Part shown: one piece after another, positions 4,257-56,044 of the stretch | How positions within the stretch are numbered: the stretch's first letter is position 1 | Layout: each line of letters starts with the position of its first letter | Source of the DNA: an uncultured Endomicrobiia bacterium | GTDB taxonomy: Bacteria > Elusimicrobiota > Endomicrobiia > DTEH01 | Direction of reading: 5' to 3' | NCBI GenBank assembly: GCA_937928765.1 | Contig: CALFVX010000004.1 | Location: forward strand, 15,799-79,798 | Length of the DNA: 64,000 bases | Program-made: the position numbers and the translations under genes | The notes under the pieces: generated by a model | The model's input: only the letters and a program-made list of their open reading frames with translations | Databases searched by the model: none | What the model was told of the DNA's origin: nothing

Positions 4257-4319
4257 AGTGATAGCAGGTAGTTTATGGTGAAGAGTAAAAAAGTGAGAAA
4301 GTGAAAAAAAGAAAAAGAG
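4257..4319 (+). repeat. Dispersed purine-rich AGTGARAA-periodic element, copy a (B-then-A module order), starting 3 nt after the gmk stop
   Basis: Sequence gagtgatagcaggtagtttatggtgaagagtaaaaaagtgagaaagtgaaaaaaag. Stops at 4279, 4286, 4294 and 4302 cover all three frames. Confidence 0.6.
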
Positions 4320-4324
4320 TTTAT

Positions 4325-4360
4325 TAGCCAACTCTTAAAGTTTGGCTAGCAGATTTTTTT
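4325..4360 (+). terminator. Candidate rho-independent terminator after gmk
   Basis: tagccaa / ttggcta 7-bp stem (4325-4331 / 4342-4348) followed by a T7 run at 4354-4360, with 5 nt between stem and T run. Confidence 0.4.
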
Positions 4361-4490
4361 GTTAAGATTTATTATGTTGTTGGGAGGCGAAGGTTGCATT
4401 TATGATTTTTTTTAATTTTTACCGTCAGTAAAAAATAAAAAATTGATAAATAAATTTAATACAAATAAACATTAAAGGAGATTTTTATAT

Positions 4491-5759
4491 ATGAAAAAAA
4501 TCAGGTTTATAATCTTTATAATTCTTATATATATAAGTTTTTCTTTTCCATCTTCTGAAGTTAAAGACAAAACTTATAAACAGATTAATCTTTTGTTAGA
4601 TGTGTTAAAATACACCGAAGAAAATTATGTTGAAGAAGTCGATAAAGAGAAATTGTTAAATTCTGCAATAAAAGGATTGTTAAAACCGTTAGATCCCTTT
4701 ACACAATTTATGGAACCAGATTTATATAAAGAACTTAAAGTTGAAACTGAAGGACAATTTGGAGGGTTAGGAATAAGAATTACTATTCGTGATGAATGGA
4801 TAACTGTTATTACACCTTTACCAGGAACACCTGCTTATAAAGCTGGAATTTTACCTAATGATAGAATCATAAAAATTGAAGGAGAATCAACTTATGGTAT
4901 GAGCTTAGAAGATGCAGTGAAAAAACTTCGTGGCCAGCCAGGAACAAAGGTTAATATCACAATTCAAAGAGAAACTCAAAAAGAACCTTTTGATCTTACA
5001 CTTACACGAGATATTATTAAGATTGAAGTAATAAAATATAAAATGTTAGAAAACAATATTGGATATATAGCATTGTTTGAATTTAACAGTAATTCATACA
5101 AAGATATTTCTCAAGCATTAGAAGAACTTAAAAAACAAGGTATGAAAGGATTAATACTCGATTTAAGAAACAATCCTGGTGGACTTTTAGACCAAGCAGT
5201 TAATATTGCAAAATTGTTTTTAGGAGAAAATAAACTTATTGTTTACACTGAAGGTAGAAAATCTCCAAGAAAAGAATATCGTGCAGATGAAAAAGCAAAA
5301 TATCTTGATATTCCAATGGTAGTTTTGGTAAATGGAGGTTCTGCTTCAGGAGCAGAAATTCTTGCAGGTGCCTTAAAAGATAATAAAAGGGCTATACTTG
5401 TAGGATCAAGAACTTTTGGTAAAGCGTCAGTACAAAGTGTTTTAGATTTAGGTGATGGTTATGGACTTAAACTTACCACTGCAAGATATTATACTCCTTC
5501 TGGTAAAAGAATTGATAAAATTGAACTTTCAAAAACACAAAAATCAACTTCTACAATAGAAGTTGGGGGTATAATGCCTGATATAGTTATAGAAGTGCCG
5601 AAAGAATTAGAGGTAAAACTTTATCAACAAAGAGAAGAAATATATACTCCAGGAAAAGAACCTGTTTCTGCAGTAAAGAAAGAAGAACAGGTAGAGGATA
5701 TAATTTTAGTTCGCGCTTTGGAAATATTAAAAGCAATAAATATTTATCTCAATAAATAA
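4491..5759 (+). CDS. ctpA: Carboxy-terminal processing peptidase (S41 family) with PDZ domain
   Basis: Signal peptide, PDZ (GLGIRI...PGTPAYKAGI), catalytic GGSASGAEI and TFGKASVQ motifs. Confidence 0.87.
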   Translation: MKKIRFIIFIILIYISFSFPSSEVKDKTYKQINLLLDVLKYTEENYVEEVDKEKLLNSAIKGLLKPLDPFTQFMEPDLYKELKVETEGQFGGLGIRITIRDEWITVITPLPGTPAYKAGILPNDRIIKIEGESTYGMSLEDAVKKLRGQPGTKVNITIQRETQKEPFDLTLTRDIIKIEVIKYKMLENNIGYIALFEFNSNSYKDISQALEELKKQGMKGLILDLRNNPGGLLDQAVNIAKLFLGENKLIVYTEGRKSPRKEYRADEKAKYLDIPMVVLVNGGSASGAEILAGALKDNKRAILVGSRTFGKASVQSVLDLGDGYGLKLTTARYYTPSGKRIDKIELSKTQKSTSTIEVGGIMPDIVIEVPKELEVKLYQQREEIYTPGKEPVSAVKKEEQVEDIILVRALEILKAINIYLNK

Positions 5760-5806
5760 AAAATTTACCTATCTATTTATTAATTTTTTTCCTAAAAACC
5801 ACAAAA

Positions 5807-6938: not shown

Positions 6939-6979
6939 GGTGAGTTGTGAAAAAGTGAGAAATTTAGAAAGTGAAAAAT
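6939..6979 (+). repeat. Dispersed purine-rich element, copy b
   Basis: Sequence ggtgagttgtgaaaaagtgagaaatttagaaagtgaaaaat. An inverted A-like segment (tttttctttccactct) lies about 70 nt downstream. Confidence 0.55.
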
Positions 6980-7149
6980 ATTATTATAAACACCTCCTTT
7001 GTTCTCTCATTAATAGGAGGGAAATGATTTTTCTTTCCACTCTATTACGAGTGGATTAAGGGGTATGTTATAAAAGTCTAACTTAATACATACTTGATAT
7101 GAGAAATTTTCTAAAAAAGTTACCAAAACTTTCCAACTGAGGAGGAAAA

Positions 7150-20872: not shown

Positions 20873-20928
20873 TAAAGATAAAGTTTTTAGATTATATTAG
20901 ATTTTTGTTTGTTGGAAAAGTTTTGTTT

Positions 20929-21001
20929 TGTCCCCGGCGAGAGTCGAACTCGCAACCTACGGATTAAGAGTCCGCTGCTCTACCAGTTGAGCTACGGGGA
21001 C
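20929..21001 (-). tRNA. tRNA-Lys (anticodon CUU), no encoded CCA
   Basis: Hand-folded cloverleaf: acceptor GTCCCCG/CGGGGAC, D arm GCTC-AACTGGTA-GAGC, anticodon arm GCGGA-CTCTTAA-TCCGT, T arm GCGAG-TTCGACT-CTCGC, discriminator A. Confidence 0.9.
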
Positions 21002-21156
21002 AACAGAATTTTTGATTTCAGAGTTGTTAACAAGGAATATTTCAAATAATACAATAATTGTGGTTAAAAATCAATATAATGCATCTTTTACAATATAAAA
21101 AATTTATTTTTTTATTGACAGAAAAATTTCTATTTGTAAAATTTGAATCTGACCTA

Positions 21157-24402: not shown

Positions 24403-24433
24403 GTAAGAGAAATTTAGAAAATGAAAAGAAAAT
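24403..24433 (+). repeat. Degenerate copy (j) of the purine-rich element
   Basis: gtaagagaaatttagaaaatgaaaagaaaat closely parallels copy b (gtgagaaatttagaaagtgaaaaat). Confidence 0.4.
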
Positions 24434-34826: not shown

Positions 34827-37800
34827 TGAAAACTAAATTGGAAAAAATTTTTTCAGGTGTAGTTTTGTGTTTAGCAGTTTTATCGCAGTATACCTTTGCG
34901 CAAACAGGTCAGGCAATTAATAGCTGGGTTCAACTTACAACAGCGCCTGGCAATGCACAAGGGGCTGGAGTTTGTGTTGTTTATGTTCAAAAAGAAGGTA
35001 AAGATAAAATATATAGTATGCGCGGAGGAAGTAATATTTTTCAAATTTATGATATTGAAACAGATGTTTGGATTTCTACTACTAATTTACCATATAATGC
35101 AAGTACCGGCGCTTCAATGACCTGGGATGGTGAAAATTTTATATATATGCTTTTAGGTGGAACAACGTTTTATCAATACGATATTTCTGCATCAACATTT
35201 ACAAGATTAGCAGACCCGCCAGGTTCTATAGCAGGCGGTGGTGCAATAGTTTATGTAAGCACTTCAGTAGATGCTAAATGGTGTTATGCATTTCAAGGTG
35301 GAACAAATGTTTTTTGGAGATATAATATATTGACTAATGAGTGGAGTTCTGTGGCGCCTCCCGGAGCGGCAACAGGGGCTGGAAGTAATCTTTTATGGAC
35401 AGGAGATAATTATATTTATGGTTCAAGATTCGGTAGTACTTCTAATGCATTTTTCAAAAGGTACAATATAGATACTGATACGTGGGAATCTCTTCAATCA
35501 TTACCTACGGGCAACTGGGGAGCAGGCGGTTCTTTATGTTGGGATGGTGTTATAACTTCATCAAATATTTACGCGATTCAAGGTGGTGGTAGTACAAATT
35601 TTTTAAAATATAACATTTCTCAAAATCAGTGGGTTACAGTTCAGTCATTACCAATTGCTGTGGGGACAAACACAGGTAACCGTCTCGCAAGGGTTGGTGA
35701 TTATATTTACGGAAGGTTAGGCTCAACTAATGCTACGGATTCTTTCTGGCGTTACCGATGGCGAGATGTTGACCCGCCGGGGAAAATCACAAGTTTTGTT
35801 GCAGAAACCGGCACAAATGGTGGCGAGATAAATTTAAGTTGGGTTTCTCCAGGAAATGATGGATACATAGGTAACCTTCCTTCAGGGAGCACTTTTTATA
35901 TCCAATATTCTTCAATGACTGAAAATGTTGTCTTTTCAACTTCATCACCACAGAATGTTTATGAAATTTATATCCCAACAGGACCTGTTCTACAAGGAAC
36001 AACTGTTTATTATACTGTTGGTGGTCTTCAAGAAAATGTAACTTATTATTTTAGAATCTGGACAAAAGACAATTCTGGTAATTGGTCAGAAATTTCAAAT
36101 GGTGCAACTGCCTGGGCTCAAGTTACACCGCTTGCTTCTGCGCCAAATGATCTTGAGATAACGAATGTAACCACAAATATAATAACCCTATCTTGGTCTC
36201 TTTCTGGTGCAGCGACTTACTGGGTAGAACACTCAACCATTTCTTCTCCTTATAACTGGATATGGCGTTCAAGTGTTCCAGCGCCAGGTAATATGTATCA
36301 AGATGTTGATTTAGAATGGGGAACTACTTACTGGTATAGATTAATAGCTGTAAACTCTGTGGGAAAACCAAATTATGATTCTTCAAGTAATATAGTAAGT
36401 TCAACTACTTATCCTGGAGTACCTACAGATTTTAATATACAAGCAAGAACATCTACTTCCATAACCTGGACATGGACACCTCCTAATGGTTTTGCTGATG
36501 GATATAAAATATATCAGGCCACATCTCCCACGACACTTGTTGCTACAGTACCCTTTGGAACAAACACTTACGAAGAAACAGGTCTCTCCACCAACACCGC
36601 CTATGGCAGATATGTCCGTTCATATAACATTGTCGGTGAATCGTTGGATTCAAACCATGCAACATTTTATACACTTGCAGTTCCACCGGAAAATCTGCAG
36701 ATAACAGAGGTTTATTCAAGTTCAGTGACACTGACCTGGCAAGCAGGTGGTAATCCCCAAGGTACAAGGTTTGGTCTTGCCCGTGCAGAAGATGAGAATT
36801 TTACAGTTAATCATACGACCTTTGTTTCTCTTTCTGATAATCTCACAGAACTTACAACAACAGCAACAGGTCTTGGTGAGGATACTACTTATTATTTCCG
36901 TGTTTGGGCATATAACGGCGACGGAATTGAATCTGGGTATAGTAACATAGTCAGTACAAAAACATTACCAGGTCCGCCTGCTACACCACTTGGACTTTAT
37001 GGAATTGCATTATCTACAGTTTCAATAAAATGGGAGTGGAATATTACAAAAAATGCTACTTATTATCAGGTTTATGATGCGGACAACAATTCACTATTAG
37101 CAAATCTTGAAGGCAACGGGACAACTACTTGGATTGAAGTTGGCCTTTCTTCAAACACGCAGTATACAAGATACATAAAAGCAGGAAATGAATACGGCCT
37201 TTCAGCTCCGTCTCTAAATGTCTCAAGATACACACTTGCTTACCCACCGACGGTATTAAATGCAGTAGCGGTAAGTTCATCAACAATAGATTTATCCTGG
37301 AATTATAGTGGTGCAACTAAATATCAGATATGGTGTTCAACTGTTGATTCACAATCACAGGAATATTGGTTAAATATCACCACGGTTGCCTCACCGACGT
37401 TGACTTATCAACATCAGAATTTATTATCAGGAGTGACTTATTATTACAGAATTTATCCTGTCAATGGTGATGATATTGTAAATACAGAATTTGACTTTCC
37501 GAGTGCATCAACAAGAACATATCCCTCACCAGTTGGTTCTTTTTACGGTATTGCAATATCCACAACATCAATAAACTGGCAATGGGAACCTGCCTTAGGT
37601 GCTGACGGCTACAAAATTTATAGTGCCACAGACAACTCTGTAGTTGCAGAACTTGTCTCTGCTAATACTTTTTATGTAGAAAGCGGATTTGCTCCAAATC
37701 AGCAGTGTGGCAGATATATCCGCGCGTTTAATACAACAGGGCTGGGTGAACTTTCAGCAAAAACAACTGTTTATACACTTGCAAACCCGCCTACAAACTT

Positions 37801-40084: not shown

Positions 40085-40158
40085 GAAAATAAAAAAGTAA
40101 AATATTGAGAAAGTAAAAGAGTAAAAAAGACAGCTGATAGTTTATAGCAGGCAGGTGA
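40076..40158 (+). repeat. Purine-rich element copy c (A then B module), overlapping the giant-gene stop. Its B module is the left inverted repeat of the four-helix-bundle cassette
   Basis: gtgaagtgagaaaataaaaaagtaaaatattgagaaagtaaaagagtaaaaaagacagctgatagtttatagcaggcaggtga. Confidence 0.6.
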
Positions 40159-40183
40159 AAAAATAAAGGAAAAGGTTTTAGAT

Positions 40184-41524
40184 ATGAGTGATAAAGAATA
40201 TATTTCACCAAATAAAAAATTGTTAGTATTGCAGAAAGCGTTTGCATTATGTAAAGAAGTTTATCAGATTGTTAAAAAATTTCCAAAGAGTGAACTGTTT
40301 GGTATTACACAACAAATCAGACGAGCGGTAGTTTCTATAGTAAGCAGTATAGCTGAAGGTGCTGCAAGGACAGGTGGGAAAGAAAAAATAAAGTTTTTTA
40401 TTACAGAAAAAGGTTCTCTTACAGAGTTGGAAACACAACTGTTGTTAGCAAAAGAGTTAGAATATTACATTTATAATCAAGAAATATTTAATAAAATCCA
40501 AAAAGTATGGAAGTTATTAAATGTATTGATTCAAAGCAAAAGAAAAATTATCAAAAATTTTCTTTTGTTATTTTTAACTATCACCTACCTGCTATCACCT
40601 AACTGCTGTTTGTTATTTTCCGCATTCCAAAGCACTGACTGGTCTGTTCGTGCAGAAAGTATGGGGGGTGTTTTTACTGCCATAAGTGATGAACCATCAG
40701 GGGTTTATTATAACCCTTCAGGGACAAGATTTGTTGAAAAAAATTTTGTCCAAACAATGTATTCAAAACCGTTTTTAGGTATTGAAGATATCAATATTTA
40801 TCTTATGAACATAGCAGGAGTTTTTAAAACAAAATATATTTCTTTAGGATTTAGTTATGGAAGTTATAATGTAGAAAACAATTTGTATAAAGAAGATACA
40901 ATTATTTTTAATCTTAGCAAAAAATTGGATGAAATTTATTCTGAATTACCGGCTTTAAGTTTAGGTATAAATTTTAAATATCTTACTAAAAAATATACTT
41001 TTGATGATGAAATCTTAAATTTAGAACCAGAATTGAAAGATAAAAAATCAAGATCAGTTGTATCATTAGATTTTGGTGCAATATACAAATTTTTAGATGA
41101 TAAGATGTCTGTAGGTTTTGCAGTGAAAGATTTTAATCAACCAAATATTGCTGTTTTGGAAGAAAACAAAGATATAATACCAATGGTAGTATCTTTTGGT
41201 AGTGCATACAATTTTGGTGATATAAAAACAGGACTGTATTTTGAAGATTTTACTTTAGGCATAGAGTTAAGGTATAGAAACCAAGATTGGGGTGATGAAA
41301 ATACAAAATTTTTTTATGCATTAGCTATTGAGACATATTTAAATTTTCATACCATACCTATAAGGTTTGGAATAAACAAAAATTCTTTTAATTTAGGTTT
41401 TGGATATCAAGGGATAAAAATTTCTGAAAAACTTAACCTTGGTATAGTTTATAATTTTGGGTTACCAATAGTGTATAATGATACTTTTGGTAATCATAGA
41501 ATTTGTGTAGATGTAAAGTTTTGA
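40184..41524 (+). CDS. Uninterrupted ORF joining a four-helix-bundle protein (23S rRNA IVS-type, TIGR02436-like; ~40184-40525) to a PorV/PorP-like OM beta-barrel protein (possible own TTG start at 40526)
   Basis: N-part: FPKSELFGITQQIRRAVVSIVSSIAEGAAR...GSLTELETQLLLA. From 40526: signal-peptide-like MIQSKRKIIKNFLLLFLTITYLLSPNCCLLFSAF, then AESMGGVFTAISDEPSGVYYNPSG and terminal ..VDVKF. Confidence 0.6.
   Translation: MSDKEYISPNKKLLVLQKAFALCKEVYQIVKKFPKSELFGITQQIRRAVVSIVSSIAEGAARTGGKEKIKFFITEKGSLTELETQLLLAKELEYYIYNQEIFNKIQKVWKLLNVLIQSKRKIIKNFLLLFLTITYLLSPNCCLLFSAFQSTDWSVRAESMGGVFTAISDEPSGVYYNPSGTRFVEKNFVQTMYSKPFLGIEDINIYLMNIAGVFKTKYISLGFSYGSYNVENNLYKEDTIIFNLSKKLDEIYSELPALSLGINFKYLTKKYTFDDEILNLEPELKDKKSRSVVSLDFGAIYKFLDDKMSVGFAVKDFNQPNIAVLEENKDIIPMVVSFGSAYNFGDIKTGLYFEDFTLGIELRYRNQDWGDENTKFFYALAIETYLNFHTIPIRFGINKNSFNLGFGYQGIKISEKLNLGIVYNFGLPIVYNDTFGNHRICVDVKF
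40581..40608 (-). repeat. Right inverted repeat of the four-helix-bundle cassette (inside the ORF, encodes part of the signal-peptide-like segment)
   Basis: The reverse complement of tcacctacctgctatcacctaactgctg matches 40131-40158 (cagctgatagtttatagcaggcaggtga) at 23 of 28 positions. Confidence 0.55.
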
Positions 41525-41525
41525 T

Positions 41526-41580
41526 ATTAGCTGGTAGGTGGTAGTTAGAGAAAAATGGTTGTATTCAAAGGTGATAGAAA
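41526..41580 (+). repeat. Purine-rich element copy e (B-type module), starting 2 nt after the stop
   Basis: attagctggtaggtggtagttagagaaaaatggttgtattcaaaggtgatagaaa. Confidence 0.45.
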
Positions 41581-41614
41581 TTTTTGTTCATTGTTTTAAT
41601 ATTAATGCTAAAAT

Positions 41615-42973
41615 ATGATTTTAATTTTATTTCTTTGTTTTTTTATAACTTGTATTTCTTATTCTTCAGAAATAAATGTTTATTTTACTGACCCAAGCAG
41701 TTTTCTTCCTTCATTAAGTGCACTTTCAACTCACCAAAAACCTATAGATTTTGCATTAAAAGAGTTTATAGAATCAGTACCTGCAGGAACTACGATGTAT
41801 GTTTGTATTTACGAAGTTAATAATACAACAATAACTTCTGCGGTGGACAATGTTATAAAAAAAGGTGTAAAAGTTTATTCTATTTTTGATAAAGATGTTT
41901 CTACTGCTGTATTTAAATCAAGTTTTGAGTGGAAAAAACTTGGTTCAAGCAACATATTGATGCATAACAAGTTTGTGGTAGTTAAAAGTTCAAAAGTGTG
42001 GAGTGGTTCGTACAATTTTACAGTTTCTGCAACTTATCAACAGGATAATTTTTGTGTAGAGATTTTTTCAAAAGAACTTGCTGAGATTTATGAGAAAGCA
42101 TTTTTGTATATGTGGGGATCAACAGGAACAATAACTATCGAAGATTTCAACGGAAAACAAACATTTTTATCTGACGGGACAAAAATAAGTGTATATTTTA
42201 ATCCTTACTTAAAACCAAAAGAATTAAAAGATGTTTTAGTTGATATTTTGTATGACAAATACTATGAAAAACCTATGGTAAAAAATTTATACTTTTCAGT
42301 TGCATGGTTTACATATAATGATATTTTAGACAAACTAATATTATTAAAAAATGAAAATGTAAAAATATACGGCATAATAGACGATGATAGTATGAATTTT
42401 TATGTTTATCAAAAATTAATATCCTATGGTATAAATATTTATTTTGATTCACGCAGAACTTCTTATGGTGAAGGACTTATGCACCACAAATTTTGTGTTT
42501 TAGACCCTTATGCAGAAAGCCCAAAAGTTATCTGCGGTTCTGCAAACTGGACACAGCAAGCGTTAAGCTCTTCTGGCGGAAACTATGAAAATTTGATTGT
42601 TATAGAATCAAGAAAAATTGCTGAAGTGTTCTACAAAGAATTTTTAAGGTTGTACAATAAAACAGTATCACCACAACTTGTTAATACAACTGATGAGTTA
42701 GTTGAAGATATTTTGTTTTATCCTAATCCTACAAAAGAAAGGTTAAATATAAAATTTAAACCCAACGATGGAGTTAAAGAAATAAAATTTTTGTTAGTCT
42801 CACTTTATGGTGTAAAAATTTTTGAACAAAATTTAAGTTTTGTTCCTGTGGTGGAAAATAAAGTTGAGTTATATTTGTCTAAAGAAATGAAAAAAGGAAT
42901 TTATTATGCAATATTAAGAGTAAAAAGTAGCCAGTATAGTAAAGATTATGTTAGAAAAATTGTTAAAGAATAA
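41615..42973 (+). CDS. Secreted phospholipase-D/HKD-family protein (Nuc-like nuclease or phosphodiesterase) with T9SS-type C-terminal sorting domain
   Basis: Signal peptide. HKD motifs from 41963 (HNKFVVVK..WSGSYNFT) and 42482 (HHKFCVLD..CGSANWT). C-terminal LFYPNPTKERLNIKF...GIYYAILRV. Confidence 0.8.
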   Translation: MILILFLCFFITCISYSSEINVYFTDPSSFLPSLSALSTHQKPIDFALKEFIESVPAGTTMYVCIYEVNNTTITSAVDNVIKKGVKVYSIFDKDVSTAVFKSSFEWKKLGSSNILMHNKFVVVKSSKVWSGSYNFTVSATYQQDNFCVEIFSKELAEIYEKAFLYMWGSTGTITIEDFNGKQTFLSDGTKISVYFNPYLKPKELKDVLVDILYDKYYEKPMVKNLYFSVAWFTYNDILDKLILLKNENVKIYGIIDDDSMNFYVYQKLISYGINIYFDSRRTSYGEGLMHHKFCVLDPYAESPKVICGSANWTQQALSSSGGNYENLIVIESRKIAEVFYKEFLRLYNKTVSPQLVNTTDELVEDILFYPNPTKERLNIKFKPNDGVKEIKFLLVSLYGVKIFEQNLSFVPVVENKVELYLSKEMKKGIYYAILRVKSSQYSKDYVRKIVKE

Positions 42974-43832
42974 AAATTGTAAAATTTTAGTATTTATATT
43001 TATTTTAGTAAATAGCGTGCTTTTTATAAATTGTAGTGTGTATGAAACATTACTTCTTCCATCTTCTGCTGAAGAGACAATGTTAATGCGATCTTTAGAA
43101 GTTTTATCTGAAGGTAGTGGTTCTTTAGCTAACAATCCTGCTGGTTGTGGTATGGAAAATAAAAAAAGTTTTTCTTTAAGTTATACTTATTGGCGTTTGA
43201 AAGAAAATTTGTATTCTTTAGGATTGTTTTTGCCAAAAAATTTTGCTAATTTAGGTTTTAAACTCAGATATGCTGACTTAGGTGAAACAGAGTTTGTCTT
43301 GGAAGAACCGATAAATGTTAGAAAAGAAAATTTGTATTTTATAATTTTTAACACAAGTTTAGGCAAAGAGATATTTTTCCCAGGATTTTTCTTAGGTATA
43401 GATTTAGGTTTAGGAAGTATAAAATTAAACCGTAACTTAAATTTGTTAAGTAGCAAACTTGGGGTTGGGTATATTTTAAATTTTACCTCTACGGAACTAC
43501 ATTTGGGTTGTAGTGTTGGAATAACTTTTTGTGATAGTGAGAGTTTAGGTGTTTACGGTTTAGGTATTAAATATTTTATTACGGAATATAAAACATTTTT
43601 TAATATATCTTATACCAAAAATGTTTACAGTTTTATAACTTTAGGGCTTGAATGCGAATTATGGCAAAACTTTGTACTTATTTCAGGATATGAGATTTCT
43701 AACGAAAAAAGTTTAATAAACTATTCTATAGGTGGAAAGATAATACAAAAAAATTTTGATATTATTTTGGCTACAAGGTATAACCAAGAACTTAACTGGA
43801 CAACAAGTGTCAGTGTTGGTATAAAATGGTAA
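42948..43832 (+). CDS. Small OM beta-barrel-like protein (PorV/PorP-like), possibly lipidated
   Basis: Signal peptide ending LFINC. GSGSLANNPAG motif, alternating beta pattern, terminal ..VGIKW. Overlaps the PLD gene by 26 nt. Confidence 0.5.
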   Translation: MLEKLLKNKNCKILVFIFILVNSVLFINCSVYETLLLPSSAEETMLMRSLEVLSEGSGSLANNPAGCGMENKKSFSLSYTYWRLKENLYSLGLFLPKNFANLGFKLRYADLGETEFVLEEPINVRKENLYFIIFNTSLGKEIFFPGFFLGIDLGLGSIKLNRNLNLLSSKLGVGYILNFTSTELHLGCSVGITFCDSESLGVYGLGIKYFITEYKTFFNISYTKNVYSFITLGLECELWQNFVLISGYEISNEKSLINYSIGGKIIQKNFDIILATRYNQELNWTTSVSVGIKW

Positions 43833-43879
43833 AACTTATAACTGACATTTTAAATTGGGTTAAATAGAGGTAAGTTAAT

Positions 43880-44932
43880 ATGTTTAAACATAAATGGTTT
43901 TTTTTAGGTTTATTCATTTTTATATCTCAAACATATCCACTACCAAAACTTGTAATCACAGAAGTTGCACCTGATCAATCAGATTATCAAGATTGGGTTG
44001 AAATTTTTTCTTATGATATAATTGTTTCAACAGATATTGTCAATTTAAGTTTAGAAATTACACATTATAATACAAGTAAAGTTTTTAGTTTTGGCAATAT
44101 AATTTCTTCAACAGATAGCTTTAAACTTGGGAAGGAAAAATTTATTATAGTTTATATAAATGCTAAAGAAAATATTTATTATTTTGATAATAAAGATAAT
44201 TTAGTTATAAAAACAACATTTACAATGACAACTTATGGTATGTACGCTACAGATGTGATAGTTTCGCTTAAAACTTCAACTGGTGCTTATATTGATGTTT
44301 TATGTTTTGCAGATAAAGATGGTTCTACTGGGTCTACTATAAAATCAAAATTTGATGATGTTATAAAAAATAACCAATGGATAGCAGAAGGATGGAATGT
44401 TAACACAAGTAGTTATACAACACCATGGGTTGTAAGTTCAGTTGGTGTTGATAATAATAAAACACTACAGAGAACAAAAACTTTTGAAGGATTACCTAGA
44501 GATACAAACCAAACAACCGACTGGGAAATAAAACCTGCTACTTTAGGTTATGGATATAAAAAAATTGTTTCAATAACACAAAATGTTGTAGAAGTAGATA
44601 AAAACACAAATCCGTTTTGTCCTGAAGATGAAACAAATAGTTTTGTAAAGATAAATTTTAATGTTGATGATTTTGATGCACAAAAGACGATTGTAATATA
44701 TGACATCTCAGGAAAAGAAATAATTAGACTTTTAGACAGAGACAAATTACCCAATGGAGATTTTACAACATACCGTCAACTAAGGTCTGGAAGTATCACA
44801 TGGGATGGCAGAACAAAAGATGGCAGTCGTGTTGCAACTGGAGTATACATTGTATATTTTGAAGCTTACAATCCAACTAACGCTAAAAAATATGTTGGTA
44901 AAGATGTTATTGTTGTAGGAAGAAAATTTTAA
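43880..44932 (+). CDS. Exported lamin-tail-domain (LTD)-like protein with FlgD-Ig-like C-terminal domain
   Basis: Signal peptide. LVITEVAPDQSDYQDWVEIFS (LTD-like start). Tail VIYDISGKEI...ITWDGRTKDGSRVATGVYIVYF. AGAGG RBS. Confidence 0.6.
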   Translation: MFKHKWFFLGLFIFISQTYPLPKLVITEVAPDQSDYQDWVEIFSYDIIVSTDIVNLSLEITHYNTSKVFSFGNIISSTDSFKLGKEKFIIVYINAKENIYYFDNKDNLVIKTTFTMTTYGMYATDVIVSLKTSTGAYIDVLCFADKDGSTGSTIKSKFDDVIKNNQWIAEGWNVNTSSYTTPWVVSSVGVDNNKTLQRTKTFEGLPRDTNQTTDWEIKPATLGYGYKKIVSITQNVVEVDKNTNPFCPEDETNSFVKINFNVDDFDAQKTIVIYDISGKEIIRLLDRDKLPNGDFTTYRQLRSGSITWDGRTKDGSRVATGVYIVYFEAYNPTNAKKYVGKDVIVVGRKF

Positions 44933-44978
44933 AGAAGTAAAGAAAGTAGCTGTTAAAAAGTATAAGCTATTGAGTAGG
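44933..44978 (+). repeat. Purine-rich element copy f, starting immediately after the stop
   Basis: agaagtaaagaaagtagctgttaaaaagtataagctattgagtagg. Confidence 0.4.
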
Positions 44979-44998
44979 AATTGATAAAAACAAAGTAT

Positions 44999-46483
44999 AT
45001 GAAAAATATATATTTTTTATTTTTATATTTCTTAATATTTTTTTCAAAAACATATGCGTTATTTGAATATAAAGAAATTTTTGCAAACAGTGCTGGATTA
45101 TGTGGAGCATTCAGTGCTGAAGAAGAAAATCTGTCAGTTATTTATTACAATCCGGCTGGGATTTTTAATATACCTAGATATAGTTTTTATTTTTCTAATA
45201 CAAACTTATATAATATATCTAAACTTGCAAACAACACATTTTGTTTTGCTACGGAAATAAGATCTTTAGGGAATATTGGATTTATTTATAACAATTTTGG
45301 TTTTGAACTTTATAAAGAAAATTTAATTTATTTTACTTATGCTAATAATGTTAAAGAAAAATTTTCTTTTGGGATAAATTTTAAGTTGCTTTCTGTTGAT
45401 ATAAAAAATTATGGTAGCAGAAGTTTTTCAAGTTTTGATATAGGAGTTTTAGCAAGGCCACATTATAAATTTCTAACTTCTTTTGTAGCAAAAAATATTT
45501 ATTCAGCAGATATTTCAGAAGATGAAGTAATACAGAAAGAATTAGTTGTAGGAAGTAAAATACAGTTTGTTAAAAATTTTTTAAGTTATATTGATGTTAT
45601 AAAAAATCCAAAAGATCCATTATTTTTCCGTATAGGTGAAGAAATAAGATATAGTTTGAATGATAAATTTTCAAGTTCTATTAGGTTAGGGATAGAAACT
45701 GCGGTAGAATACAAACCTGCAAGATATTCTTTAGGTTTTAGTTTAAGTTATAAAATTAAAGATTATGAATTAAATATTGATTACTCATACTTACATCATT
45801 TTGTTTTGTCAGGTCAACATCTAGTTTCTTTTGGACTAAATTTTGCTAAAAGACAAAATGTTTACTATGAAGAAACTGTTGATAAAAAAACAAAAAAAAT
45901 AGATGTCAAAAGAGAAACACAAATAATAAAAAAAGATTTACCTAAAAAAACAATAAATTTAAACACAGCGACTAAAGAAGAGATTGCAAATCTTCCTGGA
46001 ATTGGTCCTTATAATGCACAAAAAATTATAGAATATAGACAACAAATAGGGAAGTTTACATCATTAGAACAACTCTTAGATATACCTCGTATTGGTAGTT
46101 TAACCTTGCAAAGAATAAAACCATATATTGTGTTAGAAGAAGATTTACCTCAAAAACAACTTCAAGAACAAAGTTTTGGCCAGCAGACACAACAAGATTT
46201 GACCCAACCAAAAATAAACCAGCCAGAAGAAAAAGCTGTTGAACAACAAGAAAAACAAGAAGTTGTTAAACAAGAAAAAGAAGTTTCTAAAAAGAAATAT
46301 AATCTTAACGAAATTACTGAAGAAGAATTAAAAACTTTAGGATTTACTTCTTCTGAAGCAAAAAATATAATAAGATACAGAACAAGATTTGGTAATTTTA
46401 ATTCAGTAGAAGAAATTTATAAAATTCCTAATATTAACCGTAAGAATATAGATAAAGTAAAAAATTTATTGTATGTTGAATAA
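44999..46483 (+). CDS. OM beta-barrel-like protein fused to two C-terminal ComEA-type helix-hairpin-helix DNA-binding units
   Basis: Signal peptide ..SKTYA. GLCGAFSAEEENLSVIYYNPAGIFN. HhH-1 about 45952-46135 (INLNTATKEEIANLPGIGPYNAQKIIEYRQQIGKF), Q/E-rich linker, degenerate HhH-2 about 46300-46480. Confidence 0.7.
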   Translation: MKNIYFLFLYFLIFFSKTYALFEYKEIFANSAGLCGAFSAEEENLSVIYYNPAGIFNIPRYSFYFSNTNLYNISKLANNTFCFATEIRSLGNIGFIYNNFGFELYKENLIYFTYANNVKEKFSFGINFKLLSVDIKNYGSRSFSSFDIGVLARPHYKFLTSFVAKNIYSADISEDEVIQKELVVGSKIQFVKNFLSYIDVIKNPKDPLFFRIGEEIRYSLNDKFSSSIRLGIETAVEYKPARYSLGFSLSYKIKDYELNIDYSYLHHFVLSGQHLVSFGLNFAKRQNVYYEETVDKKTKKIDVKRETQIIKKDLPKKTINLNTATKEEIANLPGIGPYNAQKIIEYRQQIGKFTSLEQLLDIPRIGSLTLQRIKPYIVLEEDLPQKQLQEQSFGQQTQQDLTQPKINQPEEKAVEQQEKQEVVKQEKEVSKKKYNLNEITEEELKTLGFTSSEAKNIIRYRTRFGNFNSVEEIYKIPNINRKNIDKVKNLLYVE

Positions 46484-48719
46484 AAGATGTATTTTAATAA
46501 TACTTATCATTTTTTTTTACAAAAGTTTTCTAAAACCCCAACAAACAGACCAATTAGATATTCAATCTTTTACACAACAAGATGAAGAAATTCAGTTTGA
46601 AGAAGAGAAGTTGTTAGAAGAATATGAGCAGTTTTTAGACAAACAAGAACAAGAAACAACATTTACTGCAATACAGCAAGATCTAGATTTATTTCAAGAA
46701 GATGAAGATTTTTTAGAAAATTTAATAAAAAATCCAATAGATTTAAACACTGCAACATATTCAGAATTAAAATCTCTTCCTGGGATGACTGTAGAGCTTG
46801 CAAGACAGATTGTCCGTCAAAGAAGAATCCAACCGTTTAAATCAAAAAAAGATATTAAAAAACTTCGTGGTGTTGATGATGAAGTTTATAATAAAATTTC
46901 TTCTTATATTACAGTTAGAAAAATAAAACAGCCAAGGAAACTCAAAGGACAATTAAGATTAAGGTTAAAACAAGATGAAGTAGACATATCTGAACTTAAT
47001 AAAGTTAAATATTTAGAAAAAGAAAAGTTTAATCAGCCACTTTATTTTTATAACAGAACTTATCTTTCTTACGGAGATAATTTATCTTTAGGATATACTT
47101 TTTTACACAGGCCTATGGAAATAGAGGTTAATTATGAAACATTTAAATATTTTTTACGCAAATGGTGGATAAGATTAAATTCTATAATTTTTTTTGATAA
47201 AATTCTTTTAGGCGATTACAAAGCAGGTTTTGGTTACGGTTTGGTTTTTAATGAAAACTATTATATAAGCGGTTCTTTAAGCTCAGTAAAACCTAAGATG
47301 CGTGGCTTAAGAGAAGATAAGTCTTCTTATGATAACACAAATTTTTATGGGATAGGTTTTGAAAGTCATATTTCAGGTTTAGAATATTCAATTTTTTATT
47401 CACAAAAAGAGTTGATTTCAAAAACTTCTGTTTATTATGAAATAACTATAAACGAAACTTCTGGTGAAGAAAAGACGGAAACAAAAACAATTTCTTTAGA
47501 TGATTTGTTAGAATTAAGAAAACAATATATTGAATATGATAGAATATTAATGGATTATGATTTAAATATTCAAACATCAACTGTTGGAAAACTTCCTCAA
47601 AGTAAAATTCAAGAAAGACTTTTTGGTATAAACTTTTCTTTGCCGTTAAACATTTTAAAATTAGGTTTTTGTGGATATTATGCTGAATATGATAAAGTAT
47701 TTGACCCAATAACGGCTTTAAGATATGGGTTATATAAATATTCTGACAAATGGGGTAATGTTTATCGTGGAGATAGGTTAGCTGTAGGAAGTTTGTATTT
47801 TGATCTTCCTTTATACAAGTTTAACTTCTATGGTGAAATAGCTAAAAGTAATGCTTATTTTGATGAACAAAGTTCTACTTCAACATTTTCACAGCAAGGT
47901 TTTGGTTTAAACTTAGGTTTGTTATCTCATACAAAAAATAAAAAATTTTATTTTTTATACACATATCTTAGTCCAAAATTTTATTCACCTTTTGCTAAAA
48001 GTTTTACAATTTATGATTATCCAAATAATCAACAAGCAGTGAGATTTGGTAATGAGTATTTGTTAGGAAAATTAAATATAAATTTTTCTTACACAACTGG
48101 TGAAATTTTTGATAGCATCTTTAGTGGTGCTTCAACATCTGAATCTCCGAGATACCCATCAAGATATGAAGAGTTATTTTTTGAAACAAAATATAAAATT
48201 AAAGAAAATATTGAATTTTATTTTAGGAATGTAGATACTTTAAAAGAAAAATATATAAATTTAAAAACATACAATATTTCTCAACAAACAGATTATGTTC
48301 AAACACAACAGTTAAAAATAAACAATAGATACCAAATTTCATATAATATAACCAAAGATATATCTTTAAGGTGTAGGTTTGACCAACAATTTCAAAAGTT
48401 TATAAAATATAATGTGGAATATTACGGAGAACAACTGTGGACCGAAGTGAAATATAAAATTTATCCGTTTACAATTAATAGTAGATTTTGTGTGTTTGAA
48501 ACAGATAAAAATGTATATCTTAGCTATTTAGATCCTCAATGGTACAATGTCTATGTCGTTGAAACAGAAAATAATTCTTTTGGAGACAAATTTTATTTTA
48601 CTATATCTACCAAATTTTTTAAAAAATTTATTCTATGGTCAAGATATAGATATAAATATTACTTAAATTCAAAAAAGTTTGATAACGAGTTAAGATTTCA
48701 GATTGATTTTAATTTTTAA
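46473..48719 (+). CDS. Exported protein: acidic Q/E-rich linker, ComEA-type HhH unit, then a large (~600 aa) OM beta-barrel-like domain
   Basis: Signal peptide. IDLNTATYSELKSLPGMTVELARQIVRQRR (about 46735-46920). Y/F/G-rich alternating sequence with GDYKAGFGYGLVF. Terminal ..RFQIDFNF. Confidence 0.7.
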   Translation: MLNKRCILIILIIFFYKSFLKPQQTDQLDIQSFTQQDEEIQFEEEKLLEEYEQFLDKQEQETTFTAIQQDLDLFQEDEDFLENLIKNPIDLNTATYSELKSLPGMTVELARQIVRQRRIQPFKSKKDIKKLRGVDDEVYNKISSYITVRKIKQPRKLKGQLRLRLKQDEVDISELNKVKYLEKEKFNQPLYFYNRTYLSYGDNLSLGYTFLHRPMEIEVNYETFKYFLRKWWIRLNSIIFFDKILLGDYKAGFGYGLVFNENYYISGSLSSVKPKMRGLREDKSSYDNTNFYGIGFESHISGLEYSIFYSQKELISKTSVYYEITINETSGEEKTETKTISLDDLLELRKQYIEYDRILMDYDLNIQTSTVGKLPQSKIQERLFGINFSLPLNILKLGFCGYYAEYDKVFDPITALRYGLYKYSDKWGNVYRGDRLAVGSLYFDLPLYKFNFYGEIAKSNAYFDEQSSTSTFSQQGFGLNLGLLSHTKNKKFYFLYTYLSPKFYSPFAKSFTIYDYPNNQQAVRFGNEYLLGKLNINFSYTTGEIFDSIFSGASTSESPRYPSRYEELFFETKYKIKENIEFYFRNVDTLKEKYINLKTYNISQQTDYVQTQQLKINNRYQISYNITKDISLRCRFDQQFQKFIKYNVEYYGEQLWTEVKYKIYPFTINSRFCVFETDKNVYLSYLDPQWYNVYVVETENNSFGDKFYFTISTKFFKKFILWSRYRYKYYLNSKKFDNELRFQIDFNF

Positions 48720-51835: not shown

Positions 51836-51922
51836 TATACTCTTTTTACTTTCAAACTTTTTTATACTACCTATCTTCTAACACCTAACCCTTTTTAACT
51901 TTGTCACTTTTTCGCTTTATAC
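51836..51922 (-). repeat. Purine-rich element copy g (A-B-A on the minus strand), starting right after the SagB-like gene stop
   Basis: Minus strand reads agtataaagcgaaaaagtgacaaagttaaaaagggttaggtgttagaagataggtagtataaaaaagtttgaaagtaaaaagagtataag. Confidence 0.5.
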
Positions 51923-52710: not shown

Positions 52711-52782
52711 AGCAACCATCACCTGTCAGCTAACTATCTTTTTCACTTTTTAACTTTATAAATCTTTCACTATCTTACTTAT
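52711..52782 (-). repeat. Purine-rich element copy h (A then B on the minus strand), upstream of the SagB-like gene
   Basis: Minus strand reads aagtaagatagtgaaagatttataaagttaaaaagtgaaaaagatagttagctgacaggtgatggttgct. Confidence 0.5.
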
Positions 52783-52829
52783 TCCTAATTATTGTTTTAA
52801 ATATAAAATTTTAATATTAACATCAACAA

Positions 52830-54680: not shown

Positions 54681-54686
54681 ATTTCT

Positions 54687-55889
54687 ATGAATAATTTAAT
54701 AAATTATCAAACTACAGATTCAATATGTAAACATTTTAGTATTTGTGGTGGGTGTGAATTTCAAGATATTGAATATTCTCAACAGTTAAAAAATAAACAA
54801 GATTTTTTAAAAGAGTTATTTAAAGAGTTTGATATTAAAGAAACTCATTCGATAATTCCTTCCTGTGGAATAACTTATTACAGAAACAAAATGGAGTTTG
54901 TCGTTGGTAAAGATAAATCTGGCAAAGTTGTTGCTGGTTTAAGACAAAAAGGTAAATTTTATAAAATTGTAGATTTGTCTGAATGCATAATTAGTTTAGA
55001 ATATGTAGGTGAAATATTAAAAATCATAAAAGAATGGATTAAAGAGAACAATATTGAACCATATGATCTTATAACTCATAAAGGAAAGTTTAGATATATT
55101 GTTTTGCGCCATTCAAAAACTACAGATCAAATAATGTTAAATTTTGTTATAACAGGAACAAAATATCAGTTTGAACAAAATGAAAAAAAAATATTTTTAA
55201 ATATAGTTGATAAGATTAAAAAAATACAAAATTTGTATTCTTTATATATCTCGATAAACAATAAATTATCTGACAATGCTTCAGCAGAAGAGATGTTTCA
55301 TCTTTATGGCGAAAAATATATTACAGAAGTTCTTAACGGAATAAAATATTTAATTTATCCAACAATTTTTTTCCAAACAAACACAAAAACAGCAGAAGTA
55401 ATGTATAAAATAATCCAACAACAGATAATTGATGGTAATGTTTTAGACATCTATTGTGGCAGCGGTGGCATAACATTACAAGTCTATAATAACAAAAATG
55501 CGAATAAAATAATAGGTATAGATTCTTCATCAGATAACATAGAAGTCGCAAAAAAAAATTGTATTTTAAATAATATTTCAGAAGATAAAGTAGAATTTGT
55601 AAAAGACGCTGCAGAAGTGTTTTTGTTAAAATTGTGGAAATCAAAGTTTTTATCAAATTTGTCTACTATAATAGTAGATCCTCCAAGAGCTGGATTGAGT
55701 AAAAAAGTTAAATATATGATTTCTGATTTAGGAGTGAATAGAATAATATATATTTCCTGTAATCCAGAAACCTTGAAAGAAGATTTGAAAAGTTTTGTTA
55801 AATTTTATAATATTAAAAAATTAATTCCTATAGATATGTTTCCTAATACAAAACATATTGAAATAATTTGTGTTTTAGACCATAAATAG
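54687..55889 (+). CDS. 23S rRNA/tRNA (uracil-5-)-methyltransferase, RumA/TrmA family (Fe-S cysteines, no TRAM domain)
   Basis: CKHFSICGGCEFQ cluster, FFQTN, DIYCGSGG SAM motif, DPPRAGL, catalytic-type ISCNP. Confidence 0.8.
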   Translation: MNNLINYQTTDSICKHFSICGGCEFQDIEYSQQLKNKQDFLKELFKEFDIKETHSIIPSCGITYYRNKMEFVVGKDKSGKVVAGLRQKGKFYKIVDLSECIISLEYVGEILKIIKEWIKENNIEPYDLITHKGKFRYIVLRHSKTTDQIMLNFVITGTKYQFEQNEKKIFLNIVDKIKKIQNLYSLYISINNKLSDNASAEEMFHLYGEKYITEVLNGIKYLIYPTIFFQTNTKTAEVMYKIIQQQIIDGNVLDIYCGSGGITLQVYNNKNANKIIGIDSSSDNIEVAKKNCILNNISEDKVEFVKDAAEVFLLKLWKSKFLSNLSTIIVDPPRAGLSKKVKYMISDLGVNRIIYISCNPETLKEDLKSFVKFYNIKKLIPIDMFPNTKHIEIICVLDHK

Positions 55890-55950
55890 AAAAAATTTTG
55901 TAGTTTATAAGCACAACACTTAATTTCTAATTGATAAAAAAATAGATATT

Positions 55951-56044
55951 AGAAGTGAGAAAGTGAAAAAGTGAGAATGTTATAAAGTAAGAAACATAAT
56001 TAGTAGAGTGTATGGTGGTAGGTAGACTTAAGTAACAGGTGTTG
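55951..56044 (+). repeat. Purine-rich element copy i (best-preserved A module, then B module), upstream of pcrA
   Basis: agaagtgagaaagtgaaaaagtgagaatg...ggtggtaggtagacttaagtaacaggtgttg. TGA at 55956, 55964 and 55972 (8-nt spacing) falls in all three frames. Confidence 0.6.

Follow-up and report, generated by a model that had tools for sequence, protein, structure and literature searches.

Purine-rich periodic repeats of an Endomicrobiia bacterium as candidate arms of a four-helix-bundle gene cassette

The closest described systems are the intervening sequences (IVSs) of 23S rRNA that carry an ORF of the S23p/PF05635 family, as in Leptospira and Coxiella; it was in such IVSs that this protein family was first noticed. 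In Coxiella, the S23p ORF occupies the loop of an IVS closed by a 28-bp terminal stem, and RNase III excises the IVS (PMC4990558). Paired short repeats have been described from Geobacter metallireducens, where 24, 21 and 8 pairs of opposite-strand sites, made of 3–5 tandem 7–9-nt repeats with variable spacing, lie between genes and were presented as classes 1–3 of “global regulator binding sites,” read as sites for IHF/HU (Aklujkar et al., 2009, PMC2700814). We analysed a 64-kb stretch of DNA from an uncultured Endomicrobiia bacterium (the window), in which a preliminary description had noted a dispersed purine-rich family of 8-nt periodic AGTGARAA units. Heptamer repeats of cyanobacteria (STRR), intergenic, tandem, strand-asymmetric and present in many copies, were reportedly described by Mazel et al. 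in 1990 with their function unexplained; they differ from the window repeats in phylum and in units, and we know of no published link between STRR and four-helix-bundle (4HB) genes.

In-phase AGTGARAA-type arrays (A modules) occur at seven loci of the window, and a GATAGCAGGTAGGTGA-type B module at four to six. Matches to AGTGARAAAGTGARAA with up to three mismatches numbered 29 in the window as against 10.95 ± 3.65 in shuffled sequence, and none of 100 shuffles reached 29; the 16-nt B core GATAGCAGGTAGGTGA, with the same tolerance, was matched four times where 0.19 were expected (four reached in 0 of 100 shuffles). This enrichment is a property of multi-unit arrays only, the single octamer AGTGARAA being found 14 times against 12 expected, and a plain lag-8 autocorrelation scan of the window was too coarse, finding three loci. 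The plus strand of the window is purine-rich overall (A 38%, G 16%). When an nhmmer profile was built solely from the arrays of relatives, with window sequences left out, and then run on the window, its top ten matches were exactly the A sites of the preliminary description. The dispersed periodic family is therefore largely real, since arrays and B core lie far above shuffles and a foreign-trained profile finds the A sites. The copies, with the evidence for each, are the following (further profile matches are at 40074 and 52764):

4257–4319, plus strand: solitary B+A arm in the gmk 3′ UTR (B-core scan; profile match 4285–4307, E = 4e-3; no partner arm)
6946–6977, plus strand: solitary A-type array in the tsaD–HEAT spacer (profile match 6947–6964, E = 0.24; no partner arm)
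24403–24433, plus strand: doubtful, degenerate copy (one 3-mismatch match; no profile match at E ≤ 10)
39323–39362, minus strand: A-type array within the giant T9SS cargo gene, in pyrimidine orientation (best profile match, 39332–39361, E = 1.5e-5)
40080–40127, plus strand: A-type array, outer part of the cassette 5′ arm (mismatch scan; profile match 40106–40129, E = 0.06)
40125–40158, plus strand: B-type 5′ arm, …CAGCTGATAGTTTATAGCAGGCAGGTGA (34-nt inverted repeat with 40581–40614)
40184–40546, plus strand: 4HB ORF of the 23S rRNA IVS protein family (PF05635, E = 1.4e-27; TIGR02436, 98.3 bits against a cutoff of 24)
40568–40614, minus strand: B-type 3′ arm, purine strand on the minus strand (B-core scan, complementarity, RNA fold)
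41526–41554, plus strand: B-type array directly 3′ of the PorP stop (complementary to 40575–40594, z = 4.5–4.8)
44933–44978, plus strand: doubtful copy in a purine-rich spacer (no profile match at E ≤ 10)
51836–51922, minus strand: A-B-A array filling the entire nitroreductase-to-radical-SAM (rSAM) spacer (mismatch scan; profile match 51893–51915, E = 1.5)
52711–52782, minus strand: solitary arm of type A+B in a divergent spacer, upstream of the nitroreductase gene (mismatch scan; profile match 52737–52756, E = 0.4)
55951–56044, plus strand: solitary A+B arm in the rlmD–uvrD spacer, with the best A copy of three perfect octamers (profile match 55954–55975, E = 6e-4)

Of the sites first listed, all seven A loci stand, and both inverted copies inside ORFs (39.3 and 40.6 kb) were borne out by mismatch, complementarity and B-core scans. 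The copy placed at 41526–41580 was retained only through its B-type complementarity to 40575–40594, while the segments at 24403–24433 and 44933–44978 failed and are best treated as what appears to be ordinary A-rich spacer. The A and B modules both exist, not however as a fixed A+B unit, their order and number varying across elements (B-A, A-B, A-B-A).

Intergenic DNA makes up about 8% of the window, yet it holds six of the seven A loci, and each of these six has its purine strand in the sense direction of a neighbouring gene, as had been claimed. Adjacency to a stop codon also holds at the five sites named: the element begins at 4257 after the gmk stop (TAA, 4252–4254) and at 41526 after that of PorP (41522–41524), the TGA of the giant gene (40082–40084) falls within the first A unit, a 350-aa gene ends at 44932 next to the segment 44933–44978, and the nitroreductase stop lies at 51923 next to the minus-strand element 51836–51922. 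Several solitary arrays abut the start codon of the next gene. Folded alone, each element is unstructured (minimum free energy 0 to −9 kcal/mol, |z| ≤ 2 against its own shuffles), and none contains an intrinsic terminator in the form of a G+C-rich hairpin with a T run; promoter and terminator consensus scans were uninformative for the elements. Downstream of the gmk stop codon, the 4257–4319 arm is followed by a terminator-like hairpin (4315–4358, −13.1 kcal/mol) that is not part of the element.

The copy that had been seen directly before the 4HB ORF is the A+B 5′ arm of an inverted repeat enclosing this ORF. The full cassette (40080–40614) consists of this array, the 4HB ORF and an inverted B copy as the 3′ arm. 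The arms at 40125–40158 and 40581–40614 span 34 nt and are 79% complementary (z = 4.6–5.5 against shuffles), and they are paired around the 4HB ORF in the predicted RNA minimum-free-energy fold (z = −3.5); the A array at 40080–40127 pairs with 39330–39362 (z = 3.4). The 4HB ORF has no stop of its own and continues in frame into PorP, to 41524. On the plus strand, the 3′ arm (40568–40614) encodes the hydrophobic core of a signal-peptide-like segment of PorP, LLLFLTITYLLSPNCCLLF. The same arrangement is found in the relatives L116, L217 and L219, and the PorP reading frame through the arm is kept in six lineages. The array inside the giant gene is in frame and takes the place of one strand of an fn3 domain; it is common to L116 only, being absent from L219, L214 and L216. 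Synteny with L116 ends at the array 41526–41554.

With the 23S rRNA IVSs the cassette shares the ORF family, the position of the ORF in the loop of a stem of about 28–33 nt and the character of a selfish insertion that host expression tolerates (PMC4990558). Unlike them it lies between protein-coding genes, the T9SS cargo gene and porP, and since there is no rRNA in the window it is not in helix 25 or 45 of 23S rRNA. Its arms, furthermore, are short-period tandem repeats of fixed G-rich/C-rich polarity, and 4HB cassettes have dispersed ORF-less and single-arm derivatives. Excision by RNase III, as in the rRNA IVSs, is a hypothesis for 4HB cassettes. The window's 4HB protein passes the cutoff of TIGR02436, which with PF05635 comprises multicopy genes, and is distantly homologous to Avd, the accessory protein of DGRs. 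A DGR was rejected, with a score of 28.9 bits for the Avd equivalog NF033474 (cutoff 80) and no reverse transcriptase among the ten annotated neighbour genes (34365–48719). The Geobacter pairs resemble the window elements in having 3–5 tandem 7–9-nt units, opposite-strand pairs and dozens of copies per genome; this anatomy is found in the 39.3–41.6 kb cluster and not in the solitary copies. Their units differ (GTTGCTYN, TCTCCGTS, MTYCTGA), and their description does not connect them with 4HB genes (PMC2700814). Rfam yielded a tRNA-Lys as its sole match in the whole window, and over 39300–41650 no match at E ≤ 1 in gathering and relaxed searches. We found no paper that links these repeats to 4HB genes or contains the repeat sequences, and in the searchable literature no description of flanking repeats of the TIGR02436/PF05635 family, in keeping with the initial impression that this is not a named repeat family.

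The association of 4HB genes with such arms extends to other phyla. Among 71 metagenomic 4HB loci, picked by protein similarity alone (related-locus search with a 35-sequence alignment), complementarity between upstream and downstream flanks exceeded 199 of 200 shuffles in 51 (72%); the lack of significance in the remaining 28% is partly due to crude ORF-start calls. A complementarity score of at least 15 was reached by 37 of the 71 loci vs. none of 53 distal-flank controls, and the mean aligned arm length was 33 nt. The dominant unit period in the flanks is 7 nt, followed by 8 nt, with GTGA and AGTG as the commonest repeated tetramers. G exceeds C in the upstream flank of 68 of the 71 loci, and the cassettes are co-oriented with the upstream neighbour in 48 of 58 cases and with the downstream one in 50 of 59 (83–85%). 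The cassette anatomy is also seen at three more 4HB genes, including one that lies between rpsG and fusA. Four related cassettes were found in four unrelated contexts, their similarity beginning at the 5′ arm or slightly upstream and ending past the 3′ arm, which indicates that cassettes disperse as units. Threefold AGTGARAA is present at more than 120 loci in Acidobacteriota, Bacteroidota, Ignavibacteria, Planctomycetota, Elusimicrobiota and others; in 26 of 134 cases a complementary run pairs with it to form a hairpin, and in five cases it stands directly 5′ of a 4HB ORF. That every array flanks a 4HB gene was rejected, a 4HB gene lying beside just five motif sites in 120 loci (tblastn and iterative HMM searches), and arrays without an ORF are far more numerous than those with one. 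Simple co-inheritance of arm type and ORF was likewise rejected, as A-armed 4HB proteins do not cluster. Taken at the sequence level, these data strongly support the view that the A and B modules are lineage-specific arm repeats of a PF05635/TIGR02436 4HB gene cassette.

Several states of the cassette are preserved in Endomicrobiia relatives. The junction between the giant gene and PorP is empty in L216, A-armed in L219 and B-armed in L217, has an A+B 5′ arm in the window and L116, and in L214 retains the arms and a 4HB ORF with an internal deletion. With arms that enclose the ORF and recur in many phyla, and with the ORF-deleted derivative of L214, the earlier suggestion of a cassette-derived family is strongly supported. 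A-armed and B-armed cassettes at this one junction encode 4HB proteins that are 41–47% identical, as against 56–60% for the adjacent PorP, and no target-site duplication is evident from the comparison of empty and filled sites. The presence/absence and unit-number polymorphism looked for at syntenic loci does exist: in two of three orthologous spacers the element is missing from some relatives with the flanking genes intact, and unit number varies freely. Thus, the 52711–52782 arm is present in L123 (about 24 nt shorter) and absent from L125 and L126, and the rlmD–uvrD spacer has A+B+A and an extra module in L123 and L124 and none in L125. L121 and L122 equal the window in the compared spacers (L122 with a 1-nt indel and one substitution) and thus carry no information on polymorphism. 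At the nitroreductase-to-rSAM spacer the orthologues in three relatives have periodic arrays of other units, so that some C-poor periodic array is present in all four lineages, a pattern that might reflect selection on the array as such. In relatives the specific B sequence is also present at other loci.

We infer that the other copies in the window are solitary 5′-type arms or patches left by cassette turnover, because of the sequence identity of their modules with those of the cassette and because of the comparative series in relatives, where ORF deletion, arm loss and gain or loss of units are seen. At the solitary sites themselves this descent is deduced rather than seen, since the copies are unpaired, with no partner arm found within 1.5 kb, and a search for 4HB remnants beside them returned none; the window has one 4HB gene only. 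Like the window repeats, REP/BIME elements and MITEs are small, scattered, chiefly intergenic and polymorphic for presence or absence, and GTAG-containing units of the window recall the 5′ GTAG of REP. REP/BIME was nevertheless rejected, as the window elements are no palindromes (z about 0). Among the ORFs scanned in the 64-kb window no RAYT or transposase was seen. The label “MITE-like” fits only loosely and a MITE proper was rejected, for the solitary copies are without terminal inverted repeats, fixed length, partner arm or evident target-site duplication.

We consider it probable, though well short of certain, that all these observations reflect a 4HB cassette with repeat arms, orphan arms derived from its turnover and an RNA stem cut by RNase III. 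Such a cassette sits between co-oriented host genes. Its 5′ arm consists of tandem 7–8-nt units that are rich in G, A and T and poor in C on the sense strand, in most cases beginning at or over the upstream stop codon. It is followed by a 4HB ORF of about 120 codons and a 3′ arm, the reverse complement of the first, which often extends as far as the start of the next gene or into it. Upon transcription of the host operon the arms of about 30 nt would pair into a long stem with the 4HB ORF looped out, as in the rRNA IVSs, and RNase III would probably cut this stem and free the ORF. On this proposal the host cistrons could still be translated, the 5′ arm being rich in stops and the 3′ arm an open frame in each of the three registers. 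Orphan arms would be unstructured purine-rich spacer RNA, their sense orientation and stop adjacency inherited from the geometry of the cassette. The RNase III step is deduced from the rRNA analogy and the G·U mismatch test gave it no support: mismatches in the arms are not biased to G·U in the sense RNA (50 GU-type vs. 76 AC-type, p = 0.03 in the opposite direction), so that complementarity may be kept at the DNA level or be young. A role as processing site is possible for paired arms only and cannot hold for the unpaired copies.

The absence of a G·U bias is one of several points that would suit an element acting at the level of DNA, a possible though not probable reading in which the arms are recombination or landing sites, perhaps binding arrays of 4HB pentamers, and cassettes hop or are exchanged between existing arrays by homologous or protein-guided recombination, RNA pairing being incidental. 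One site holds A- and B-armed cassettes with 4HB proteins less alike than the adjacent PorP, an A-type patch overwrote a coding stretch in frame, synteny breaks within an array, and ORF-less arrays far exceed ORF-bearing ones; the 3–5 tandem units would also fit a multimeric binder, an S23p homologue being a homopentamer (PMC4990558). Pure DNA recombination does not, however, predict the strand-specific polarity of the arms and their co-orientation with host genes, neighbour genes, empty and filled sites and dispersed cassettes yielded neither a recombinase or transposase nor a target-site duplication, and binding of 4HB proteins to the repeats is hypothetical. This reading is compatible with the cassette and RNA-stem explanation, and both can hold together.

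It seems doubtful that the solitary arrays are functional per se as intercistronic or 3′-UTR modules, be it as an unstructured leader keeping the next start accessible, as an all-frame stop or in strand-asymmetric Rho control, the latter resting on a C-free sense strand vs. a C-rich, G-free antisense strand. Their lack of structure when folded singly (z about 0), the sense orientation of every intergenic copy, the next start codon adjoining several of them and the array kept in the nitroreductase-to-rSAM spacer despite differing units would all agree with such a role. Stop triplets 8 nt apart, noted earlier as TGA in all three frames, are indeed present at 55956/55964/55972 and at 4279/4286/4294/4302, except that 4286 is a TAA. 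The 5′ flanks of the 71 cassettes, however, contain 4.73 stops per 70 nt where 4.34 are expected from their own base composition; all-frame stops are therefore a by-product of C-poor composition, and a stop function finds no specific support. Loss of the element from spacers with intact flanking genes, free change in unit number and the same modules lying antisense inside genes also speak against functional modules.

That the arrays serve to bind a global nucleoid or regulatory protein of the IHF/HU type is very unlikely: the Geobacter pairs for which this was proposed do have the same anatomy (PMC2700814), but the units differ between close relatives and even at one site, which a conserved regulator would not tolerate, the pairs enclose a specific gene family, and their polarity follows transcription. 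Least credible of all is a set of unrelated chance low-complexity tracts or independent microsatellites, for which the A-rich genome, the non-enriched octamer and the two copies failing the profile test could be cited, and which is largely refuted by the array, B-core and profile tests and by the return of the specific B sequence in relatives.

A wider proposal, tentative and rather improbable as it stands, is that 4HB genes, taken together with their inverted arms of short period, make up a separate class of mobile cassettes that spans phyla and has no conventional transposase. The pentameric 4HB protein would recognise its own arm units, as RNA or single-stranded DNA, and would bring about or direct excision and spread; the ORF-less hairpins and orphan arrays, which number in the thousands and would include the “regulator sites” of Geobacter and perhaps the STRRs of cyanobacteria, would be non-autonomous derivatives and landing pads, and the rRNA IVSs a special case that was noticed first.

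Among small bacterial genes that lack an explanation, those for 4HB “IVS proteins” rank with the most common, and short tandem 7–8-nt intergenic repeats have been catalogued for decades without explanation. The tie between the two gives a concrete anatomy, a C-poor 5′ arm, an ORF and a complementary 3′ arm, co-oriented in host operons, and offers a testable model of RNase III processing. As a rule for annotation it would drop many spurious repeat-encoded “hypothetical proteins” and flag gene fusions made by cassettes. It also illustrates how a host may absorb an insertion: here the pyrimidine-rich 3′ arm appears to have become the signal-peptide hydrophobic core of the outer-membrane protein PorP, its frame preserved in six lineages.

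The preliminary description had proposed a dispersed family of purine-rich 8-nt repeats in the window, and this repeat finding is real. The lone octamer AGTGARAA occurs at background frequency (14 matches vs. 12 expected), but two in-phase units with at most three mismatches match 29 times against 10.95 ± 3.65 in shuffled sequences, a count equalled by none of 100 shuffles, and these matches group at seven loci (A loci). The core of the second repeat type, the B module (GATAGCAGGTAGGTGA, at most three mismatches), occurs four times vs. 0.19 expected, so that the enrichment holds for two-unit arrays and the B core and fails for the single octamer. The ten best window matches of an nhmmer profile trained only on arrays of related genomes are exactly the seven A loci (E-values 1.5e-5 to 10); two further copies originally listed, at 24403 and 44933, were not recovered and should be dropped. 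Of the seven A loci, six are intergenic, compared with an intergenic share of about 8% for the window as a whole; in each of the six, an adjacent gene has the purine strand as its sense strand, as had been claimed. The placement of five copies at stop codons was also confirmed: they overlap the upstream stop codon or start 0-2 nt from it. The stop triplets within the elements lie at the positions reported, with the correction that the one at 4286 is TAA, not TGA. No Rfam family matched the elements.

The window has a G+C content of 28%, a purine-rich plus strand and nearly all of its genes on that strand, and it encodes type IX secretion genes (PorP/SprF and Por_Secre_tail). The closest named relatives of its RlmD are Endomicrobiia MAGs (identity ≤85%), and the Endomicrobiia MAG contig L116 is 82.6% identical to the window over 3.1 kb. 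This places the source, an uncultured bacterium, within the Endomicrobiia (Elusimicrobiota). A solitary minus-strand tRNA-Lys(CTT) (20928-21002) is located in a 381-nt spacer of a gene run that is otherwise on the plus strand. The 1.3-kb "gap" 5' of the giant type IX cargo gene (33943-34158, 34211-34417, 34365-34826) has no Rfam match. It contains a 68-aa ORF, which overlaps the start of an intact DUF6036 nucleotidyltransferase gene, and a truncated paralogue of that gene, an arrangement resembling a duplicated pair of toxin-antitoxin-like type.

The repeats are identified as IVS-type cassettes outside rRNA, built around an ORF of the four-helix-bundle (4HB) family, together with their orphan arms. 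The window holds one complete cassette:

Features of the cassette at 40.1-40.6 kb
40125-40158, plus strand: 5' B module, upstream arm of a 34-nt inverted repeat
40184-41524, plus strand: 4HB-PorP ORF, with a 23S_rRNA_IVP/TIGR02436 domain (residues 11-113) and, after it in the same frame, a PorP/SprF barrel
40581-40614, minus strand: inverted B copy, downstream arm of the 34-nt inverted repeat

The two B arms enclosing the 4HB ORF are 79% complementary and their pairing exceeds that of shuffled sequences (z = 4.6-5.5); in the RNA fold of 40100-40640 (-116.6 kcal/mol, z = -3.5) the same arms close the ORF. Translation of the pyrimidine-rich 3' arm yields the hydrophobic core of PorP's signal-peptide-like segment. 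Paired arms are confined in the window to the 39.3-41.6 kb cluster, and the copies outside it have neither a partner arm within 1.5 kb nor an adjoining 4HB remnant. In six Endomicrobiia lineages, the 4HB ORF lacks a stop codon and continues in frame into PorP (identity of PorP 56-100%). Both the window and L116 have an in-frame TTG (40526 in the window) that could serve as a PorP start. Another relative, L219, has no ATG, GTG or TTG at this position, and translation of PorP thus seems to begin at the start codon of the cassette.

The comparison of syntenic loci in relatives showed presence/absence polymorphism. At the junction between the giant gene and porP, filled, empty and deleted states coexist among the relatives; together with the B arms enclosing the 4HB ORF, the deleted state strongly supports the earlier "cassette-derived" reading, which is right:

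State of the giant-porP junction in the window and its relatives, with coordinates of the 4HB-PorP fusion
Window, 40184-41524: A+B 5' arm, B 3' arm
L116, 1921-3288: A+B 5' arm, B 3' arm
L217, 108-1427: filled, B-type arms
L219, 1501-2829: filled, A-type arms on both sides
L214, 1501-2553: L219-type cassette, its 4HB ORF shortened by a deletion of about 90 codons, frame into PorP intact
L216: empty, 5-nt spacer and ordinary signal peptide

The rlmD-uvrD spacer carries A+B in the window, A+B+A and another module in the relative L123 and no such element in L125, where a 10-nt periodic GATATTnATT repeat takes its place (5192-5280). The element in the divergent nitroreductase/Wzy spacer was found only in the window and L123, with a difference of about three units. 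All four lineages compared have a periodic C-poor array in the nitroreductase-to-rSAM spacer, with different units: A/B type, (TAGnnGG)15, or (ATGnGTRR)14 followed by its complement. The last of these, in L126 (1119-1307), is an ORF-less hairpin of about 14 octamers and their complement at a site where the window has a single arm.

Synteny between L116 and the window stops within the B module 3' of porP. The giant gene (34823-40084) contains, at 39323-39362, a pyrimidine-oriented A-type array that replaces in frame an fn3 beta-strand (FFHFLTFSLSNS); common to the window and L116 and missing from three more distant orthologues, it resembles a gene-conversion patch. Another short module, TATAAACACCTCCYTTG…ATAGGAGGGA, a hairpin pairing anti-SD-like with SD-like sequence, adjoins A arrays in the window (6985-7030) and in the rlmD-uvrD spacer of L123 (5400-5470). 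In L116 (3440-3900; genome G+C 30%), G+C-rich GTCATCCTGAGCGAAGCGAAGG-type repeats directly adjoin B-A-B-A arrays; sequences of this kind are common generators of junk ORFs in many phyla.

The association of arms and ORF was also approached from 4HB genes gathered by protein similarity alone, namely three from exact-protein look-ups and 80 metagenome loci, 71 of which had both flanks. All three looked-up genes have periodic arrays on both sides, with units unlike those of the window, and in two (L130 and L132) the downstream array is a clear reverse complement of the upstream one. The cassette of L130 (GCA_964746005.1, 700-1260) lies between rpsG and fusA of the str operon, where its (TTTAGAG)n and (CTCTAAA)n arms directly adjoin the stop codon of rpsG and the start codon of fusA. 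Reverse complementarity between flanks exceeded 199 of 200 shuffles at 51 of the 71 metagenome loci (72%), and a complementarity score of at least 15 was reached by 37/71 loci vs. 0/53 distal-flank controls. G exceeds C upstream in 68/71 and C exceeds G downstream in 56/71; the main period is 7 nt, then 8 nt, and GTGA and AGTG are the most frequent repeated tetramers of the 5' arms. The upstream neighbour has the same orientation as the cassette at 48/58 loci, the downstream one at 50/59. Four related cassettes each occupy a context unrelated to those of the other three, their similarity extending from the 5' arm (or just upstream) to past the 3' arm. A-armed 4HB proteins from different phyla share 27-52% identity and are no more similar to each other than to B-armed ones; simple co-inheritance of arm type with the ORF is therefore rejected.

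Searched as an exact pattern in 185,579 species genomes, AGTGARAAAGTGARAAAGTGA matched at least 120 loci, spanning 30-68% G+C. The matches listed include Acidobacteriota, Bacteroidota, Ignavibacteria, Planctomycetota, Verrucomicrobiota, Elusimicrobiota, a few archaea and other groups. Among them, runs often start at a stop codon, with a stop within the run in 34 of the 75 that have a long upstream ORF; 26 of 134 runs have a complementary run within 300 nt downstream (loop mostly about 30 nt), and runs lie directly 5' of a 4HB ORF in Tenacibaculum, Xylanibacter, an Ignavibacteria MAG and Endomicrobiia. The Xylanibacter 3' arm, (TTCTCACC)4, likewise codes for part of the next gene's signal peptide. 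Cultured organisms with a cassette include Xylanibacter ruminicola KHT3 (locus L108), Tenacibaculum caenipelagi CECT 8283 (L006) and Sphingobacterium paucimobilis (L128). In L025 (3520-4230), a locus of an Ignavibacteria MAG, two tRNA genes are interspersed with a 4HB cassette and an ORF-less (AGTGATnn)n hairpin, and the arrays adjoin the tRNA ends.

These data demonstrate how the cassette is built, which polarity it has with respect to the ORF and to transcription of the host genes, that cassettes disperse as units, and that internal deletion produced one or more of the ORF-less forms. In the IVSs of Coxiella and Leptospira, a 28-bp stem with an S23p ORF in its loop is excised in vitro by RNase III (PMC4990558). 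By analogy, the two arms would pair into a stem in the operon transcript, and RNase III would cut this stem. The mean aligned arm measures 33 nt with 86% identity; its mismatches in the sense RNA show no G·U bias (50 GU-type vs. 76 AC-type), which counts against the RNA model, whereas the nearly invariable upstream position of the G-rich arm counts for some strand-specific constraint. The suggestion of an all-frame stop module found no specific support: C-poor 5' arms contain 4.73 stops per 70 nt and composition alone yields 4.34, and we therefore read the stops as a by-product of composition, possibly a useful one. A REP or MITE identity is rejected, as solitary copies lack a partner arm and the elements are unstructured alone (|z| ≤ 2 vs. 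shuffles for every element), and a DGR identity of the cassette is likewise rejected. Neither a recombinase nor a target duplication was seen at the cassettes examined.

The cassette shares its ORF family and its terminal stem with rRNA IVS elements and differs from them in location. The closest earlier description of the repeats is that of 53 pairs of opposite-strand sites with tandem 7-9-nt repeats in the genome paper of Geobacter metallireducens, read there as IHF/HU sites (PMC2700814). A literature search, mostly without subscription journals, found neither the window's repeat sequences nor a tie between such repeats and 4HB genes. The cross-phylum rule on the arms flanking 4HB genes is a more interesting result than the window's own repeats.
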